A DNA stretch of 64,000 nucleotides from Paramecium tetraurelia (lineage: Eukaryota). The stretch covers positions 186,001 to 250,000 of the forward strand of contig CT868026.1 of NCBI GenBank assembly GCA_000165425.1, given 5' to 3'. The notes below the pieces were generated by a model. It ran no database searches, had not been told where the DNA came from, and was given only the letters and a program-made list of their open reading frames with translations. Made by a program: the position numbers and the translations under genes. This document shows positions 28,122 to 41,092 of this stretch, piece by piece; positions within the stretch are counted from its first letter, which is position 1, and the number at the start of each line of letters is the position of its first letter.

Positions 28122-31011
28122 TCAAGGTTAATTTAATTCCTGTTTCTTTTATTTATAATCTATCCCATTCTAAAGTAAATATTAGACTCCTTTGGAGAAT
28201 ATTAATTACCATGATTTTTTAAATTGGCTACAAAACTTTTCTAAATAGAGTAATATTAAAAGAGTATTCCATACATCATCTATAAGACCTTGTGAATTGC
28301 TTAAATTTAAATAATTGACCTTTAACTGGATGTCATTATTAATCTAAAATCTTCCATCTGCCTAGGCAAAATTCATCAAATTTTCATATGTAAGATTATT
28401 AATTTCGGGCTACTTAGAGATTGCAAAAGATGTCGAACATATGTCTTCATTTTTGCATTATTATGCCATTGAAAATGTATCTTCCACAGAACATTTTTAT
28501 GCCATCTATTGTACTATTGGTTGTTTTGGTGATAGTGGCGTTTGCATTTGCATTGGTTTTGGAAATTACATATTGCAAGGTGGTGGTGGTGGTGTTGCTT
28601 TTGATTGCATTGGTAGTGGAAATTACATATTGCAAAATGGTGGTGGTGGTGGTAGTGGTGCTGTTGATTGCATGCCATACATTTGTGGTGTTGTTGATTG
28701 CATGCCAAACATTTGTGGTGCCGTTGATTGCATGCCGCCAAACATTGGTGGTGTTGCATTTGATTGCATGCCAAACATTTGTGGTGCTGTTGATTGCATG
28801 CTGCCACACATTGGTAGTATTTGTGCTTTCATGCCGCAAGACATTGTTAGTGATGGTGGTGATGCATTCATGCACTTTAATTGTTATGAAGGGTATTTTC
28901 CTGATGTCATGCTGCAACCTTAACTTAGAAATTAGCAAGAAGACAGACCAAATTGATTTGGAAATGTTTTTTTAGTATGTGTTATCTTGATTTTAGATCT
29001 GGCCTACTATTTTAATTGATCTTCTAATTCGCATACTTCACAAACAAATGCTGTTTTATTACTCAATATTTAATTTTCTATAGATAGATTCACAATATCC
29101 TTATCTTCAATATTTTATTTATTTAATTTAATAAAATTAACTTGTTATTCACCATATTTTATTGCGTTATCGTAATATGTGATAAACTTATGAGTGGCTA
29201 ATTTATGAAAATATTCATTATCTTAAGATTAATTTAAATTCAAATTGACAGAATATTTTATAGGCTATTTATCTTATGGATTATAGCAATGGATACTAAA
29301 TTCAATGTTTTCTAATTCTTATTCATTGGAAAATAGAATTTAAATAGTGAGTTCTTAATTTTTTTTTAGACTAACTATTGATTCAGGATTTGGAATGATT
29401 GAAGAGATTTTATCTACATTAGTTTCTAATTTAAAATCTTCTAGATATGGAGTCAATGAATCCTCCAATAAGTCAATTACCTTTTCATTAATATCCTCAT
29501 TATCTCCTACTATGTGAAACTTTCCATTTCCTACCTCAGCAACTCTTTTTATTAAATAAAAACTGCAACGTTCTCCAATTCCTAATGTATATATCCTAGT
29601 TTCTGCCCGATTATTATTTTTAACAAGTTCAATGATTGGATCTGCATTATCTTCTCCATCTGTTAGTAAGAATACATTTAAAGTTGTGTCCTTTGAACAT
29701 CCATAACTACTATTATATATCTTATTTTTTAAAGGATTGTAAATATTAGTTCCTCCCATGTCTGCCTGCATATCTTTTACATGTTAAATGGCTTCTTATA
29801 AATTATCTTAAGTATATTGTCTTGATTCTTCCCATAGGGAAACGTATTATGTACCAAATGATATAATATTGAATAAAGAGGTTTAAGGCAAACTTTTAAG
29901 AAATAGAATTAATGATTGTTTTGCCTTTTATATTCTAGATCCATCCATGGATCCACTTCTATCAATAATGAATAAATAATTCCCTCTATTAATGTTTTAT
30001 TTCTCTGGCAAATTTATGCTATCCAGATATTAAGAATAAGCATCATCTAATGACATCTAATTAAATTGCGGAAATGAAAGTTAATGTGGCACAATATTTC
30101 TAAACCTATAAAGCATCATTATTTGTATGACTCAGTATTGCTCTCGGTAAATTGATATCATTGGATGAAAACAATAGAGTAAATTTCTTTAAGGGTTTAA
30201 AGCTTTCAGGATTATCATCATCTAATTTAAGAACTAATCTTTTGCCATTCTCTTGTTTTATACCTTCAATATCTTTGGCATTTGTAGAATGCAATTAATG
30301 TGTTGGAGATTTCCAAAAAGTGATAGGTGATCCAGTGTCAAACTCGATCTCAATGTCTTATTGGTACTCAAAAGTAAAGTCTTTCAATTAAAACATACCA
30401 TTTAAATATCTTACAATTTTATTAAACCCTATTTGAGTATCAGATTGATTTTTTTAATAATTTTCATCTATTATTGGAGATATATCAATTTTCCAAAATT
30501 TGTTCAAATACACCTCCAAGGGTTGTATATATTCAAAAATCACTCTTAATTATTTATTTGGAGCAAGTTATCCTATTTTGAGTCTTTTTATCTATGGGAA
30601 TTATTCATCTTCTTCGCTATAAGCCATAGTTTTTCCTTGTTTAATTCCTTCTTCAAATTCTTACTTTGCTTCTTCTTTTTCCTTCACTATTCCATAAACT
30701 ATTTACTCTCCTAATTCAACTTTCATTTTAGTGACAGCTGCATTCTCGTTGATAGAAAAAACATATTCTAGGTCTAATGGCTAATTAAAGGCTTCTGTTA
30801 AAAATATTTATTCTATTTGCACGATTTAAAGACCATTATATATTTTTAGGTGATATTTAACACTTCGCAATGGTATTACCTTCTTTTAATTTTATTCAAA
30901 ACAGACAAACAATTATAATGGGTTAACCATTTACCTTTCTCTTTCTTTTCTCATTTCATATTTTTGATTGGCTTATTAAATTTTAGGACAAGATATTTAT
31001 ACTTAACTCAT
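28122..31011 (-). CDS. VIT plus von Willebrand factor A domain protein (VWA5A/ITIH-like) with an apparent 1-nt frameshift near 30072
   Basis: VIT-like N-terminus (KEKEEAKQEFEEGIKQGK), MIDAS motif IIDRSGSM, ADMGGT, FLLTDGE, Pro/Met/Gln repeat region; the 2890-nt span is 3n+1. Confidence 0.85.
28543..28812 (-). repeat. Imperfect coding tandem repeat (about 27-33 nt units) encoding MQST(A/T)PQMFG plus polyproline tracts
   Basis: Repeated ttgattgcatgcc...atttgtggtg units and ggt runs on the + strand, in frame with the vWA gene. Confidence 0.85.
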
Positions 31012-32038
31012 TTAAATTTTTTAATTATTTATTTTTCCAATTAGTTTTGGTTATGAATACTCCTTTTTTGGCAATTTCTGATTACAAATTCTACCAAGGA
31101 TAATAGACTATCATAATAGAATTTTTACTTATAGATTATATTGATCAACTAATTAGAAAGTACTTTTTAAATTTTGAATTGCAATTAGACTGAAAGCATT
31201 CAATGTTAATTGAAAAATAAAAGATCATAACTAGATGAATTAGAATAATAATAGATATTGTAGATAATCAATACTAGGAATTCAGATGGCAGGGGCATAT
31301 GAAATTTTTATCTAAAGGATAATAGTTTCGATTATTTAAAAATTTGATATTCTAATTCACTTATGAGATTTGGATATGTGTAAATTTGTTGTAGAATTAA
31401 TTATATTTTATTAAATTTAAAGGAGGAACTTTCAGGATATATTTTTTTTTATTTATACGTTTAAATTTTCTACAATTATTTTCATGGAAAATAAAAAGAA
31501 GGTCAATTTGAATAAAATCAAAAATCCATATATTATTTTATCGCTAGAAACGATAGATTTGATGGAAATTTAAGATAGCAATAGGTGGTCAATGGAAAAT
31601 TTTAATGATCAAATCTTTTAAAGACGTACACTAAATCAAGAGCTTTGAAATAAATGATTATTTAGAGATAATTATTATTTAAGAATTTAGCAGAAAGATG
31701 AATTAGAGAGAATTGAAAAATTGTAGAATTTAGAGATAAATTGCATTGAAATAACTCATAGAATTAACTTAAATATTAATTGAAATTTTGGCTTTTGAGC
31801 GAAAAATATTCTATTAAAAATTTAATTTAATAATCTTTTTCGAGTTTATTTTAAAGTATAATGAACAAAACCCAGATAATTATCAATAAAAATATAGCAT
31901 TAGCTTTTAAGAAAGGTGATTAGAAATTCTTGAAGTTCAATTAATCTATCTTAATATCCGATTAAATATCTACAAAAACCAGAGAAAGAAGTAAATCAGG
32001 TTTAATATTGTTGTGTAAATAGTTAAAATTAAAAAGTA

Positions 32039-32822: not shown

Positions 32823-33545
32823 ATGTAAAGAAAATCAAATACATTAAAATACTTATGCAAGTTACTTTATTCTACAACCCCATTTTGTTAGCACAAGAAT
32901 TCTTGTGTTGTGAATATGTCAAGAGGACTGGTTGAGGCATTCACTAAGGCATTTTTGGCAAAGCTTTGTTTAAATGCCATAATGTTGGTTATGAGTTCTA
33001 AGAAGATTATCAAATCATCTAATAAAATCAAATTGGTTTTTCAAATTTTGATTAATAGGTATTGTATAAAATGTAATTATGTATAGAACTAATTTTCATT
33101 TGGGGTTATTTATGGGCACATAGACATTTTTAATTAAATGCATTTAATGTCTTTTGAGAGCAATAAGAAATAAGGAGGATGGTTGGAATGCTGCAATTTC
33201 TGGTTTTATCGCAGGAGGGTTGAGTTTTATAACTTAGAAGCCGCATGTTCAAAATATCCTTAGAGTTTATTTGTTTGCAAGAGCGACAGAGTGCTTATAT
33301 CAGATTGGTATTTAGAGGTAAAATATTTAAAAATGAAAAGAAAGTATTACAACCATCAAAAGGCGAACACTGCAATTGCATTCGTAGCAATGACTGCAGT
33401 AATTGCATACGGGTTCTTTTTTGAGCCAGACATATTGCCAATGGACACATTCAAGATGTACGAGAACTTTTCATAATAAACCCTGGTGGATTAGATTTGG
33501 CATATGTGCAATGTATAATAGTATAGAAATAGATGCAATGTTTGA
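32823..33545 (+). CDS. TMEM135/Tim17-like membrane protein
   Basis: C.H..SC N-terminal motif, CLLRAIRNKEDGWNAAISGFIAGG, YLFARA, YGFFFEPDILP; tiny introns. Confidence 0.75.
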
Positions 33546-33580
33546 TAGGATATGAACAATACTTATAAGTTATAAAATGA

Positions 33581-36500
33581 TCATAAAATTTTCTTTAACT
33601 TTCTTAATTTTCTCTGGGAAGTAATTTCATTGAAGCAAAAGTACAGAATCAAAATGGGAGTGCAAGGTAGGCCAATGACACCAATGAAATTCACATCTCT
33701 GTCTGGAAAATAATAAATCATGTAGGGTATGTACATGAGTAACACTAAAAATAGTGAAATTAAATAGGAATAGACCAACTTCTACAAAATTGATAAATGT
33801 AATAATTTACTTTGTTTAATTTCTAATATCTGAATGATAGGATTCTTGTTCTGCCCAGGAAAACGTGTAGCCATCCCCACATGATGAATCCATAGATGAA
33901 CCCTAATTGAGCAATATCCAAAGACAGGTATGAGTAACAGAGTTCTGAGTCATTTAATTTGCAAATATCAGAGTTGCTGGTGACAAAATTGGTAATCCAA
34001 GAGTGATCGGTTTCATTCAATTTGACAATAACATTTCTGAAGTCAAATTCAGATTCCTTATTGAAATGTTTATAAAATTAGAAAGTGATAAAAGGATTTT
34101 GTGATAATGGTTGGGGATTGATTAAGTTCAGATTGCCCAAATATTGGTCTGAAGTATTAAAATTGTAAAAATCAGTAGAATTGAATATTTGACTTGAATA
34201 TCCAGTTTTGTAGATGATTCCAGGTAAGGATTTGCTTTGAAATCCAAAATAATGCATAGTAACCAAATAACTCATCATTCCTGATGATGCAGCCAAGACT
34301 CCATGAGTGAGGATCCATCTTAAGAAATGTTGGAGTTTAATAAATATCTTCACATTACTTGGTTCTCTGATTATGATGTCGACTTCCTCATTTTCATTCA
34401 ATACTCCCAAGACCAGAATTTCCAGCACAAATGTTATATACAATATTCCAAAACTAGTGAGTGGCAATGGAATCCCAAAAAACAACATTAAGAGAATGGG
34501 GATGAATTGACCGAATTTATTACTCAAACACAATTTAATCTGTTTAATTAGGTTATCAGTAAATCGTCTGCCATGATAAATGCATTTCAGTATCTACTCC
34601 AATTCCTGTTGTTCATTGCTCATCAAAATAACTTTAGAGGATTATTTAGCTAATTCATCAGATCTATTCAATGCAAAACTTACATCACACTTCCTTAAGG
34701 CAGGTGAATCAATCGTATCAAAACCAATCATTCCAACTTTATATCCTTGTTTTTAAAAAGCAGATATAACCATTAATTTTTATGCTGGATTTATTCTTGC
34801 ATATATTGTATTTAATTATGTACATAGTTTTGTATTGATTGATTCTTCATCTGCCTACTCTTTTTATTATTAATTCTCATCTAATTATTCGTGATCTTCT
34901 AAATCATTACCTGTAACTATTTTAGGATTACAAACTAATTGAGATTCTTAAGCAATATATTCTGCAGTTTCAGGAAAGTCACCAGTCCTTTTTATATGTA
35001 AATAGATTACATTAACACAACTCTAATTCCAGACAAGTTCAATTTCTGCAATACTGTCCTAATGATGGGAGTGATGCTCAATTTCAAGGCAATCGTCCCT
35101 AAATTGGTTGCATGATTCAAATTAAAATTAAATTCGTTCGTGTTGGCTATATCGAATCTGTAGTTCTCATCTAGGATTAAGAGTTTCTCAGCAAATGAGA
35201 TGAGCGAGTACCCCTTCTTTGCCAAATTTCTGTGAGTATTCAAATATTCAATCTCCTCTTGACTTCCAGATCTGAATAGCTTTTATGAAATGACTTCAGG
35301 AGAACCCATTAAATACACGATATACTAAGACTTGAATTCCATATTCTGCACTATGGTCAAACAATATCGTTCTATTGCTGTGAACTGTCTCTATTGAACA
35401 ATTCTGTAATCGTCAATCCTATAATCCCTAATGAATTGTCTCATTATTTGTTAAATGTCTTATTTGTTGTAAGACTCCTCCAAGGAATAATTCTCCTGAT
35501 AGATGCAATAATGGATGCAATTAAGTAAGTCTATCAAATCTAAGATTTAAATACTTTGATAGTTCTTGATCTTGTTAATGTGATATATTTGATTGTCCAG
35601 GATTATCTTCTTAGGTTGTTATCCCTAGACCAGGACAGCTTCCTTATTGATCAACAGCAAACTCATTTAAGTTAGACTCTCAATCACGTCAACATCCTTC
35701 AAAAATACACTCTGATCTTGCATGATTGAGACAATCTTCCTCTTTGAGTAGGAGATCAACAACATCAAAGTGAAGGGAAGACTAGGTTAAATTATTTGAT
35801 ACTTAGATAGTATGATTATGATGATTGTGTTAATTAGGAATGTGAAGTCGTAGTGTCCATTCTGGTACTCCTCGAATATCCATCCAATGATTGTTATGAT
35901 GATGAATGAAAATATTATCAGAGTAGTAATCTATATAATTCTTAATAATTTAAATCAAATACTTCTTGACTTAGTAATCGATGTGTGAAATGGACATGGG
36001 AACATCAATCTTCTTGGCTAGTTTCCCCAGAATAGTCTAATTGCCAGTGTTTATGACTATGGCTCTTCCTTCCCCAAAAACACAACCGACTCCTAAGAAG
36101 GCTACGTTCCTTGCTTCAAATATGGATTTGTGATTGCTTTCTTCTGATTCCAATAATATTGGCTGACAATCCCCTGTGAATATAAAATTGTCCACACTCA
36201 ATTGTTGGGATAGTATGATTCTACAATCGGCTGGCACCTTGTAATTGGAATTCAATTCAATCAGATCTCCCTTCACCAATTATTCCGAGGAGATTTTTTA
36301 CTTTTAGCCATTTCTTATTACTATCACTTCGTCATTGGTGATTATTTGATTGAATTACTAAAAGAGTTTCTTCTTCTTTTGATACGACGTGAATGTAATT
36401 ATGTGGGTGAATACTAGAATTGCCAATAAACTAATGATTTCAATCAGAAATGAAATGTGCTCCTTCTCATCATACAAATATCCAACTATCGACAACACTA

Positions 36501-37061
36501 TAACTATAACTAATGCTAATGTAAAGAGGTTGAACACTTCTCGCAATTGCACATTTGCATGTTTGCTCGTAATTTTGTTTAAACCGAATTTTGCAATCTT
36601 CTCCTAGACCTATTGATCATTCAATCCATCCGTGATGTTCGTCTTCAAAATCTTTTATATCTATTCAACAGAGTATGTATGTTCGATCATCTCTATTTGG
36701 TCTTAATCAATCTATATAGAATTTTCGGACATATAGGAAGGATATACGTGACTCATTCGCTGACTTGGCTTCTGCTTGCTAAACAAAATATTCTCATTAT
36801 CATGCATTTTAGACGAGTAGTCCGCCCCTCTCTCCAAAAACCGAGGAGCCTCCTCAACTATTGAACTGTTAATCAATTCCCCCGGTTAGATTGGATGCTC
36901 CTTTATTTTGAATTCGAGCATCGCCTATATAATCGAATATTGCACTAGACTTTTATTTGGAGAAGAGTCTAAATCACCTAAATAAACATACTTTCAGCGA
37001 ACGATTTCGTATTATGATTACTTTGCTCTAATAAATATTGAGATTATTCTCCTTTATTCAT
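33581..37061 (-). CDS. P-type ATPase-like protein (type IIC Na/K-ATPase-like architecture), predicted catalytically inactive
   Basis: VKGDLIEL..VPADCRI, EARNVAF.G, TGDFPETA, YARINPAQKL and DSPALRKCD are present, but DKTGT reads NKEAV, TGES reads TGDC and PEGL reads PFTL. Confidence 0.85.
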
Positions 37062-37199
37062 ATAATTATAAATTGAATTATAAGTAATTCTTTAACATTA
37101 ACTTATTTAATATTATCACTATATGTCACTACTTTTACATTATGATCGAATATATATATATATAGAAATTTTTATAAAAATATTAATAAAGCAGATTTT

Positions 37200-37579: not shown

Positions 37580-37771
37580 TCAAATTGGGTTCAATTTTTG
37601 TAGTTGCTCAGCTTCCTTAACAAGCTATTGCTGCATTACTTCTAGTATTCTAACATTTTTATCCAAACTTTCAACTTGCTCCAATATCACATTATGCCAA
37701 GGGTAAAGCACAAAGGCCTAAAAGCTTAATGCGCAGATTCCAACAAACATGTTCACTTTCGGGAGAACCAT
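37580..37771 (-). CDS. 63-aa single-TM microprotein with a VLYPWH motif and coiled coil
   Basis: MVLPKVNMFVGICALSFQAFVLYPWHNVILEQVESLDKNVRILEVMQQQLVKEAEQLQKLNPI; paralogue at 38041-38259. Confidence 0.75.
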
Positions 37772-37813
37772 TATAATTGCTAAGTTTATCTTAATTTATT
37801 AATTAATTTCTCT

Positions 37814-38040: not shown

Positions 38041-38259
38041 TCAGGCACTTTTTCCATTCCCAATTATTTTTTGCTTGATCAACTGCTGATTCCTCTCCAT
38101 ATGAGTTTTCAATTCCACTTCCATCTATTCCAATCTCACAATGTTTTTCTCCAATTTGTCGACTTATTGTGATATCGTCTCATGACAAGGATAAAGGACC
38201 AATGCCTAAAAGCACAAAGCAGTGAAGCCTATCGCAAAATTCATTTTGATTATTCCCAT
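38041..38259 (-). CDS. 72-aa single-TM microprotein (VLYPCH variant), paralogue of 37580-37771
   Basis: MGIIKMNFAIGFTALCFQALVLYPCHETISQQVDKLEKNIVRLEQMEVELKTHMERNQQLIKQKIIGNGKSA. Confidence 0.75.
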
Positions 38260-38961: not shown

Positions 38962-41092
38962 TCATAATATTGATTTGTAATAATCAGCTTCTACTTTAGA
39001 TTGTGTCTTAACTCGTTTTTTATGTTTATTTTAGTCATCTTTGCTTTATATACTATGTAAGGGATGGTATGTATTAATAGAATCTGTCAACATAAATCCT
39101 TGCACTTGATTTTCTGACAATCTGTCTAATCTAGAACTCATTGATTTAGATTTCATAAATGATTAATAATTTGACTTTATGATATCTACTTTAGATGAAA
39201 TATTCGGATTCACAACTCTTATATGTTATTTAGCTACTTTTATTTAAGGTAATTATTAAGAATCTTCTTCATATGATTGCCTAATAGAAAACTAATCTCT
39301 ATTTGTTGCAAAGGAAGGGAACTATTTAAGACGAACTGACTGCAAGAGATCTTTGACACTGCTGTTTTATTTACTAAAATACGGTGTCTTGGCTCTACAT
39401 ATTGCAAGAATAGATACTTAGGTTTGGCAGGTTAAAACTATTCAAATTACTTTTCAACTCTTATCAAAAGACACTTTTAGAAATTGTCTCCAGCCAATTT
39501 GAGCATGTTAAATTCCTCTTATTTCTCCCCAAATTGTTCATCTAATTTAGTGTGTTAATCAATGATGGATTTATTTTATTCAACCATTTGCTGTTTAGAG
39601 AGTTTTGATTAAAACGTAGAGCGTAGAATAGGTTATGACAGAAATGGCTTAGCTTCTTCTTTGCCAAACTCATTTGCGTATCTCCTTTCAACAGCCAGAG
39701 CTTCTTCCTTTTTTGTAAGATAGAAGTTACAACTCTTAGTTTTCACAATGTCCTCTATTCTCCTTCTGAAAAGTTAGCTGTTTCTTTATTGGAGGGAATT
39801 CAAAGCCTAGAAAAACTCTGGAAATGTCTTCCTGACAATATGATAATTCTCAAAATAATGAAAATGATATTTTACTTCTAGAGAAAGACAAAAACAATTG
39901 CAAATAGTTAATGTTTTTACTGAATAATCTCTTCTCTCCTTTTTTTAGACCACTTCTGTTTCACCAACAAAGCAGCCTCCTGTCAGATTGGCCAAGATGA
40001 TGGTTTCCTTGATATCCTTGATTTCTGGTTTAGAACTTTGGAATATAGACATCAATGTAAAATCTACGTTGTTCTGAGTGGGTGGTTTTGGATATTCAAC
40101 ATTTTGCAATAGTTACATTTCTCCATCTTTCAAGAGTAGGAATCCATCTGTTTCATCTCCTTATTTCCAAATGAAAAAGTTAGCTGGAAATTTGGCAGAT
40201 GTAAAATACAAAATGAGTTTGGACATTTTATGTTTCGTCATGTGAGGAAACATTTTTAAAAAGTAGTCTATTTTCTATTGGAGTGCTTTCATTCCCTTTT
40301 CTCCAACTTACTATAGTTATGGATTGGAATTACCTTGAAATTAGCCTTGGATAAGGATAGCAATTTTAGATCAGTTAAGCCAAATATACTGGCAGTTCTG
40401 GGCTTATCGTTAGTTAATGCCATTTCTCCGAAGATTGTTCCTGATTGCTTTTAGGCCACCAACATAAATTTGCAGATTCCTTGGTTGGTGAAATATTTTT
40501 CAAAGTTTCCCGATCGAAATAATATTAGTTCAGAATCGATGACTTTTTGTGGTTTGGCCTACTTTTTAATTACTTAACCATAGAATTTCATTAAATCGTC
40601 TCCTTACAATTGAGAGACAGATTCCAAATGCAGCTTTTCGAGCATCTTTAATATTCTTGGTTAAGCAGCTGCTTCATCGGCTTCAATCGATGCTGGTTGT
40701 CTTCTAATATAGATTCCTGCCCTGCCACTCAGAACAATATAGAATTTGTCACCAACATCATCTACATATGATGCCAATATCTACCAATGTGAAACACAGG
40801 GGAATCTTTTGGGATGAATTCGTAAATGAGGTTTTGGCAGCATAATTTTGTAAACTCCATTAAGGTTTGAGTGTCAGGACAATTCTCCTTAAAAAAATCA
40901 ATAACCTGAAGTATTTTGGCGATAATGTCGATTTATTCCTCAGATAAATATTGGTAATCTTGATAAATTTAGACAACGGGCTTTTTATTATTGTGATTTC
41001 ATGCATACTTAAAATAATTCTTCCTTTGCCAATGCCTGATCTTCCTGTTCCTTCTCAAAATCTTTGGTTAATCCTCTTTTAAGTTTCGACAT
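38962..41092 (-). CDS. Tandem cyclic nucleotide-binding domain protein
   Basis: VGDKFYIVLSGRAGIY, FGEMALTNDKPRTASI and a second domain GDETDGFLLLKDGEM...GCFVGETE. Confidence 0.85.

Follow-up and report, generated by a model that had tools for sequence, protein, structure and literature searches.

A full-length relative of the Na,K-type pumps in Paramecium tetraurelia that lacks the phospho-acceptor aspartate: a putative membrane scaffold or regulatory subunit

We analyzed a window of 64,000 nucleotides from Paramecium tetraurelia (GenBank assembly GCA_000165425.1, contig CT868026.1, positions 186,001 to 250,000 of the forward strand) and describe here a gene on its minus strand, DEAD1 (33581..37061, from the ATG at 37061 to the TGA at 33581). 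It encodes a relative of the P2C ATPases, the family of the Na,K- and H,K-ATPases, in which the phospho-acceptor aspartate is replaced by asparagine. The catalytic residues are lost, and the gene is nevertheless expressed and conserved, which makes DEAD1 a pseudoenzyme. The pattern of conservation suggests that it is a pseudo-pump, which probably acts as a membrane scaffold or regulatory subunit of low abundance.

The DEAD1 protein was compared with human Na,K-ATPase alpha1 and with a ciliate alignment. The likeness to P-type ATPases is not due to chance, since the best match in the PDB has an E value of 6e-65 and the best fold match one of 1e-49; a first, sequence-only reading had likewise proposed a full-length relative. 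The same reading had placed the Asp-to-Asn replacement at 35646..35648, and this is indeed an AAT codon on the minus strand, encoding Asn450. The codon (35648-35646) sits within ESLTQMSLLLINKEAVLVQG, and the protein reads INKEAVL where pumps read SDKTGTL, so that DKTGT has become NKEAV. As also proposed, TGDC, PFTL and GFDTID align with TGES of the actuator domain, PEGL of transmembrane helix M4 and GDGVND of the human protein. In M4 the proline is kept and the glutamate has become Phe408 (35774-35772). GFDTID (34708..34725) has Phe743 for the first aspartate and keeps the last, Asp747; the first Asp and the Asn of GDGxND, which form the Mg site, are thus absent, and the orthologue of P. bursaria reads GYDATD. 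In the nucleotide-binding (N) domain, KGAPE is replaced by MGSPE, with loss of the ATP lysine (Met555) and retention of G556-x-P558-E559, and GERV by GYSL, with loss of the arginine (Tyr588). DPP reads LSI. Both the N and the phosphorylation (P) domains are shorter than in P2C ATPases. The roles given here to single residues of the N domain and the membrane helices are general background on these pumps.

We found no splice form that would restore the phosphorylation site. None of the 161 possible GT/GC..AG excisions near the Asn450 codon creates D-K-T/S or DxTG, the assembled transcript described below does not restore DKTGT either, and DKT, DxTG, PEGL and TGE are absent from all three minus-strand frames. 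According to the portions consulted of two papers (PMC10654040, PMC7858053), the aspartate of DKTGT is the signature of the family and is phosphorylated in every cycle. By established P-type chemistry, a protein without it forms no phosphoenzyme and has no pumping cycle; judged from its sequence, pumping by DEAD1 is therefore excluded. That the protein is still an active ATPase, by means of a migrated acid or some other chemistry, is highly improbable. Asp744, beside the lost Mg ligand, is common to DEAD1 and P. bursaria, and the TGD hinge is kept. However, there is no common acid near position 450 (Glu452 in DEAD1, Gln in P. bursaria), the phosphorylation segment ranks with the most poorly conserved parts of the protein, and phosphorylation of the DKTGT aspartate is what defines the family (PMC10654040, in the part seen).

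The gene model was derived by reading the minus strand from 37061 to 33581 with the ciliate code (genetic code 6) and from a transcript contig of run X7, which was taken as RNA by guess. This contig is 3354 nt long, spans positions 33574-37069 and lacks exactly six stretches (29, 23, 24, 21, 22 and 23 nt), giving seven exons and six GT..AG introns of 21-29 nt. Exon 1 (36992..37061) and intron 1 (36969..36991, 23 nt) are followed by exon 2 (35963..36968), which encodes the N-terminal tail, M1-M2 and the actuator domain (Pfam PF00690 and PF00122). Intron 2 (35941..35962, 22 nt) precedes exon 3 (35803..35940), with M3 and the start of M4. Intron 3 (35782..35802, 21 nt) lies within M4 and is in frame and free of stops; exon 4 (35555..35781) carries the remainder of M4 (LPFTL) and the phosphorylation segment. 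Intron 4 (35531..35554, 24 nt) is again in frame and stop-free, and the join across it is matched by the loose ends of three reads each in runs X21 and X23. Exon 5 (35011..35530) encodes the shortened N domain, intron 5 (34988..35010, 23 nt) lies shortly before the TGD motif, exon 6 (33811..34987) encodes the remainder of the P domain and M5-M8, and intron 6 (33782..33810, 29 nt) separates it from exon 7 (33581..33781), with M9-M10 and the stop. The spliced product has 1112 residues, its sole stop at the end and no frameshift. The sequence-only reading had seen a preserved frame of about 3.5 kb; the spliced frame is open, as it implied, but it is distributed over seven exons. That reading had also missed two of the introns, the retained TGD, Lys and Asp residues, the P2C origin and a sister lineage.

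A model with only four introns gives 1127 residues and corresponds, by eye and by length, to the public protein P0019, P. tetraurelia GSPATT00033380001. We rejected it because introns 3 and 4 are missing in the RNA contig and in the orthologue proteins: three orthologues from the aurelia species complex lack the two short blocks that it keeps, and retention of both introns would add 7 residues to M4 and 8 to the N domain. With intron 3 removed, M4 reads ILSNLPFTL, to be compared with VANVPEGL in active pumps.

Plus-strand first mates cover the gene in all three raw oligo-dT runs, an orientation that usually indicates, in stranded libraries, RNA of the opposite strand; DEAD1 RNA comes from the minus strand. 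The mean depth was 4.1, 1.7 and 3.9 in the three runs, as against up to 147 for the right-hand neighbour. DEAD1 is thus expressed, weakly.

Orthologues were recovered by searching exon 6 among longer proteins, which returned 18 matches. The three close ones come from P. primaurelia, P. sonneborni and P. bursaria, and the first cluster adds a P. pentaurelia orthologue and P0019. All four orthologue proteins have asparagine at the phospho-site. DEAD1 is 95.0% identical to its orthologue in P. pentaurelia, 95.3% in P. primaurelia and 90.0% in P. sonneborni. Active pumps with an evident orthologue reach 89.9-96.3% in the first two species and 90.2-95.0% in the third, rows at 62-83% having been set aside because their orthologue is absent from the set. 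At the protein level, conservation among DEAD1 orthologues matches that of active pumps. P. bursaria lies outside the aurelia complex, whose shared whole-genome duplication is dated to about 20 to 320 million years in the consulted part of PMC11334263. Its orthologue is 42% identical overall (426/1007) and reads IIPISL in M4, IGAPE and SGD, with TGES intact. TGDC is found in DEAD1 and the three aurelia orthologues, so that loss of the TGES glutamate is confined to the aurelia species. Since P. bursaria has the asparagine together with TGES, the phospho-aspartate was lost first and the actuator glutamate later. The KGAPE lysine, the GERV arginine, DPP and the first GDGVND aspartate are gone in both P. 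tetraurelia and P. bursaria.

With the P. bursaria protein as query, a 50%-representative search gave no orthologue outside Paramecium among the best 150 matches, all at 33% identity or less; such a search does not establish that DEAD1 is absent from other lineages. Among these 150, only P0096 and P0142 lack DKTGT, and neither has the N-terminal motif of the dead lineages described below. P0096 (Tetrahymena utriculariae, KAL4482233.1) is a fast-evolving P2C copy that keeps the aspartate and reads QLGF in M4, TND and GNYVND; from its grouping with active Tetrahymena pumps, it is a separate degeneration. P0142/P0177 (Logan proteins, 834 residues) is a P2C-like degenerate pump, again with the aspartate kept (DQEQT, PQSL, TKS, GEGSND). 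Two metagenome scans for orthologue DNA gave 590 pattern matches with none confirmed, and no match, respectively.

DEAD1 is single-copy in genome G000, and a second copy seems to have decayed. The right-hand neighbour of DEAD1 has an 83% paralogue on contig C671, and beside that paralogue lie four colinear, same-strand scraps matching DEAD1 (E values 4e-6, 4e-5, 1e-3 and 0.08). The best of 30 shuffles reached 1e-4, so only two of the scraps exceed the control individually, and it is the order of the four that carries the case. One scrap reads L-I-N-K-E, the AAT codon included. The scraps (L084:7542-8392, G000:C671 about 360.0-360.9 kb), in which the Asn codon is still visible, are probably the decayed genome-duplication twin of DEAD1. 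A broken copy of an active P2C gene, L052 (G000:C677:651000-657000, minus strand), carries stops, shifts of frame and a large deletion that spans the phosphorylation site, features by which it is an ordinary pseudogene, unlike DEAD1.

It is hardly credible that DEAD1 itself is an ordinary pseudogene or a gene on its way out. The low RNA depth, the single copy, the very long branches in trees and the lack of a P. octaurelia orthologue in our searches would agree with such a fate. Against it stand the open spliced frame of 1112 codons, an orthologue identity equal to that of active pumps, the same asparagine in P. bursaria, the decay of the twin where DEAD1 did not decay, and the very different look of L052. 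DEAD1 is not a decaying pseudogene.

The sequence-only reading held that all catalytic and ion-binding motifs are lost. This applies to the phospho-aspartate, the M4 glutamate, the KGAPE lysine, DPP and GDGVND, but not to the TGD hinge (T655-G656-D657 in LMTGDFP, 34978..34986, just after intron 5; SGD in P. bursaria), Lys451, the adenine-binding Phe530, Arg718, Lys724, Asp747 and the M4 proline. Arg718, Lys724 and Asp747 show no variation across all 148 aligned P2 sequences, even in DEAD2, a second dead lineage with Gly at the Asp position. Of the 177 positions at which 13 active pumps do not vary, 57 are altered in every one of the three dead proteins that we compared and 43 persist in each of them; Gly and Pro make up about half of these 43.

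Engineered Asp-to-Asn pump mutants bind ATP and cannot be phosphorylated. DEAD1 might by analogy be a switch that senses nucleotide or phosphate, its P domain binding ATP or phosphate and passing its state to a partner. We regard this as rather unlikely, although several features fit it: the replacement is by Asn specifically, in the aurelia species as in P. bursaria; Lys451, Gly656-Asp657, Arg718, Lys724, Asp747 and Phe530 are kept in both; and the actuator domain is the best-conserved part of the protein. On the other hand, neither species retains the KGAPE Lys, the GERV Arg, DPP or the first GDGVND Asp, identity to P. bursaria in the N domain is as low as 37%, and Arg718, Lys724 and Asp747 may be structural, given their invariance even in DEAD2.

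In the membrane, M5 reads SNKFGQ for TSNIPE, which places Lys811 (34516..34518, common to P. bursaria) at an ion-ligand position, and M6 reads TFVLE for DLGTD, with only the last acid, Glu843, kept. A passive cation leak along the old pump pathway would be compatible with the retained ten-helix domain and with the acidic residue in M6 (Asp in P. bursaria), and Na,K-ATPase can be opened to a channel by a ligand, according to the title of PDB entry 9vj0. We consider it very unlikely, because the M4 Glu has become Phe or Ile, the M5 Asn Lys, the M5 Glu Gln and the first M6 Asp Thr, so that the ligands are gone and a positive charge is added. Among the roles that the sequence-only reading had offered for a retained non-catalytic protein, a description that our data support, that of scaffold or regulator agrees best with the findings. 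A passive cation conduit agrees least, because hydrophobic or basic residues have taken the place of the ion ligands.

The position of the M4 glutamate is hydrophobic in all dead members (PISL in P. bursaria, PFTL in DEAD1, PVGL in DEAD2), and PISL is the M4 motif of the P4 flippases. The membrane domain could thus have converged on a flippase gate and let lipids cross, or sense them, independently of ATP. The conserved M5 lysine of DEAD1 would agree with this, a lysine in TM5 being noted for P4 ATPases in the available part of PMC10654040. Nevertheless, lipid handling is quite unlikely: ancestry is P2C and not P4, a buried glutamate that no longer has its ion should in any case be replaced by a hydrophobic residue in time, and DEAD2 lacks the M5 lysine. 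Moreover, that of DEAD1 presumably lies one position after the P4 lysine.

The evidence on ancestry comes from profiles, trees and a predicted structure. The best hidden Markov model for DEAD1 is TIGR01106, at 222-236 bits against a cut-off of 946, active Paramecium paralogues scoring 973-983; the flippase model TIGR01652 was not among the 18 families matched. Trees were built from 61, 26, 23 and 22 hand-picked rows. A mixture-model tree joined DEAD1 and DEAD2 with a Shimodaira-Hasegawa-like approximate likelihood ratio test (SH-aLRT) value of 98, a grouping flagged as a possible long-branch artefact. Under the same model, each dead lineage taken alone nests among the pumps of Paramecium, Tetrahymena and Ichthyophthirius, with an SH-aLRT value of 100. 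An AlphaFold model of the P. pentaurelia orthologue (P0021), which relies on an alignment dominated by active pumps, shows the whole P2C fold, with A, N and P domains and ten helices (mean predicted local distance difference test score, pLDDT, 74; predicted template modelling score 0.72). In a Foldseek search, 49 of its 50 best PDB matches were Na,K- and H,K-ATPases. Template modelling scores were 0.62-0.65 to whole E1-state chains and 0.50-0.55 to E2-state chains, a difference to which we give no weight, as the state that the predictor happens to choose is uninformative. We infer, from the best profile, PDB and fold matches and from the mixture-model trees, that DEAD1 descends from ciliate Na/K-type (P2C) pumps.

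To see where constraint now sits, we compared DEAD1 with its P. bursaria orthologue, the controls being pairs of active paralogues or cross-genus pairs. In the phosphorylation segment, 11 of 37 residues are identical, versus 31-33 of 37 in five active pairs that are 47-52% identical overall (p 2e-7 to 5e-6, four tested). The same holds for the whole P domain, with 85/201 identical versus 133-146 of about 200. In the actuator domain, M1-M6 and M7-M10, conservation is close to that of active pairs; no part is better conserved than the actuator domain (57% to P. bursaria, 99-100% within aurelia). The N-terminal tail has 29 of 79 residues identical to P. bursaria; in the P0021 model it is disordered (pLDDT below 50, residues 1-107), and an ESM Atlas search with the tail gave a best score of 0.83, a lead at most. 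Between M7 and M8 lies a long, predicted outer loop (residues 901-1005, 33934..34248) with four N-glycosylation sequons and lineage-specific conserved blocks. Here 43 of 102 residues are identical, versus 19-25 of 96-98 in three active pairs (p 0.0007-0.017). Constraint has left the phosphorylation domain and persists in the tail and the outer M7-M8 loop, which favours a role as scaffold or regulator. In animal pumps this loop binds the beta subunit; the beta-subunit family PF00287 had no match in genome G000, and none in the control genomes either.

DEAD1 is not the only P2-type gene of the genome without the aspartate. Among 46 other P2-type loci fetched, for which all genome-search counts are lower bounds, DKTGT is kept in at least 39 and missing in at least 7. 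Two of these form the DEAD2 pair, L037 (GSPATT00022945001, G000:C673 about 188.3-191.4 kb) and L038 (GSPATT00021041001, G000:C635 about 167.5-170.7 kb), both on the minus strand. They have long open frames, the phospho-site CIGLNEVIT (Asp to Gly), PVGL, TGE and GEGLTD, and the TGES loop is deleted. DEAD2 is conserved in all six other aurelia proteins seen (P. primaurelia, P. pentaurelia and P. octaurelia). The ratio of nonsynonymous to synonymous substitution rates (dN/dS) of the pair is 0.059 (dS 0.88, 885 codons), and that of active-pump pairs 0.035-0.195 in the six with finite dS, two more being saturated.

DEAD1 and DEAD2 are only 25% identical. They have in common, together with the P. 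bursaria orthologue, the N-terminal motif PRFLERGAD (36820..36846 in DEAD1). A pattern composed after this motif had been seen, P..(.)E[RK]G.[DN], was matched by 12 of the 475 proteins fetched, and every one of these is a dead member. The distance from TGD to ARxxPxQK is 57-62 residues in 13 dead proteins versus at least 74 in 93 active ones, and at 23 alignment columns the three dead proteins share a state that none of 13 active pumps shows. DEAD1 and DEAD2 look like the products of one old loss followed by duplication, an old Paramecium subfamily of pseudo-pumps; for this single loss, the common N-terminal motif and the P-domain deletion weigh more than the tree.

Further loci were noted in the genome. 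L075 (G000:C666:50900-55900, minus strand), which resembles plasma membrane Ca-ATPases (PMCA), has long open frames and reads SKSQI for DKTGT, TNE for TGD and SHSDE for GDGTND; it is likely a further pseudo-pump, of calcium-pump descent. L062 (G000:C635:318000-323000, plus strand), also PMCA-like, has CKTGI for DKTGT with TGE, PECL, TGD and GDGTSD kept, and is 58% identical to the intact L057 across 603 residues with no stop; its aspartate may have been lost recently. L068 (G000:C676:80400-85400, minus strand) keeps the aspartate in DQTSI and is degenerate elsewhere, and L064 (G000:C98) is a C-terminal fragment only.

The history that we propose for DEAD1, read as a scaffold or regulatory subunit, is the following. 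An ancestor of Paramecium would have duplicated a Na/K-type pump gene, one copy of which gave up phosphorylation together with the cation sites and a large part of the ATP pocket, and was probably duplicated again into the DEAD1 and DEAD2 lineages. DEAD1 would fold as a ten-helix pump that does not cycle, its ion site closed by hydrophobic residues and the built-in Lys811, and would act through its surfaces, namely the motifs of the disordered N-terminal tail, the actuator domain and the outer M7-M8 loop. The nearest guess for its clients is active P2C pumps or other membrane proteins, which DEAD1 would place or tune. More tentatively, DEAD1, DEAD2 and the Asp-less calcium-pump copies could form a dedicated subfamily of stand-alone pseudo-pumps, either as accessory subunits or sensors of active pumps, in the place that beta or FXYD subunits have in animals, or as ATP-independent handlers of lipids or other ligands. 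If so, this would amount to a regulatory layer for P-type pumps, similar to that of pseudokinases, in a eukaryote where it can be tested by RNA interference (RNAi).

Several points weigh against the scaffold or regulator reading. The proposed role rests on what is conserved in the sequence, and expression is low. The enrichment of the M7-M8 loop fails against one of the four controls (31/82, p=0.65); these loop controls are paralogue or cross-genus pairs, with domain limits set by the analyst. FastTree grouped the dead lineages with each other at a place outside the ciliate pumps. Our searches gave no DEAD1 orthologue in P. octaurelia, a species that appears for other paralogues; the gene might be one that P. 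octaurelia can do without, or it might be annotated wrongly in that species. Finally, the kept TGD, Arg718, Lys724, Asp747 and Phe530, together with Asn450, would also fit a nucleotide- or phosphate-binding sensor.

Compared with known systems, DEAD1 is like the P2C ATPases (Na,K-ATPase alpha1, PDB 7e1z, 8d3u and 9kcg; H,K-ATPases) in its A, N and P domains and ten helices, and differs from them by the missing phospho-Asp, M4 Glu, KGAPE Lys, DPP and first GDGVND Asp and by a private N-terminal tail. Active ciliate P2C pumps, namely at least nine intact loci of genome G000 (L034-L036, L039-L044) and the 'Na,H/K antiporter' proteins of Tetrahymena and Ichthyophthirius, have a similarly long M7-M8 loop; however, they are only about 24% identical to DEAD1, and all nine loci keep DKTGT, TGE, PEGL, TGD and GDGVND. 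The degenerate P-type modules that we found in print are all parts of alveolate guanylyl cyclases. These P4-ATPase modules (P4GC), ciliate ones included, have an altered DKTGT aspartate and actuator glutamate, as the sections seen of PMC13466520 describe. They are P4 and fused to a cyclase, whereas DEAD1 is P2C-derived and stands alone: Pfam finds only P-type domains, and the transcript contig ends after M10, in agreement with the lack of a cyclase domain in the sequence-only reading.

For the P2C pump CATP-1 of Caenorhabditis elegans, pump-independent roles are discussed in the part seen of PMC11631496, among them one that may survive loss of the aspartate (citing Ruaud and Bessereau 2007). 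CATP-1 is naturally an active pump whose aspartate was mutated in the laboratory, while the loss in DEAD1 is natural and fixed across species. The Paramecium paper on an alpha subunit, as far as we could consult it, uses an active paralogue (PMC4866997), and the words ATPase, P-type, transporter and pump do not occur in a pseudoenzyme review (PMC10211241). We found no description of DEAD1 or of other stand-alone dead ciliate P2C pumps in the literature searched, which leaves most subscription journals and some supplements outside its scope, and the DEAD1 gene identifier had no match in full texts or readable supplements for expression or proteome data.

In the window, a gene of the Tim17/Pmp24 family lies next to DEAD1, at about 32830-33598 on the plus strand. 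Its transcript contig finishes in an A run at 33598 and shares about 25 nt with the 3' end of the DEAD1 transcript (33574), the two ends being convergent. Just upstream of DEAD1, two similar short open reading frames of about 70 residues stand in tandem (37580-37790 and 38041-38255, minus strand); they are well expressed, with one hydrophobic stretch, and the one that was scanned had no match in Pfam. Two other genes, both on the minus strand, are ordinary neighbours: a VIT-VWA gene (28122-31110), which carries a short repeat rich in Pro and Met, and a gene with a cyclic-nucleotide-binding domain (39210-40873).

The correction of the public gene model by two introns, and the presence of dead members in automatic tallies of ciliate 'cation ATPases', bear on the annotation of these genomes. 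That a full-length, stand-alone P2C protein is expressed and conserved although dead suggests that the pump fold is worth keeping for reasons beyond pumping. This bears on the old debate over pump-independent roles of the Na,K-ATPase; here nature would have separated such roles from pumping, in a single-copy gene of a ciliate that is amenable to RNAi.

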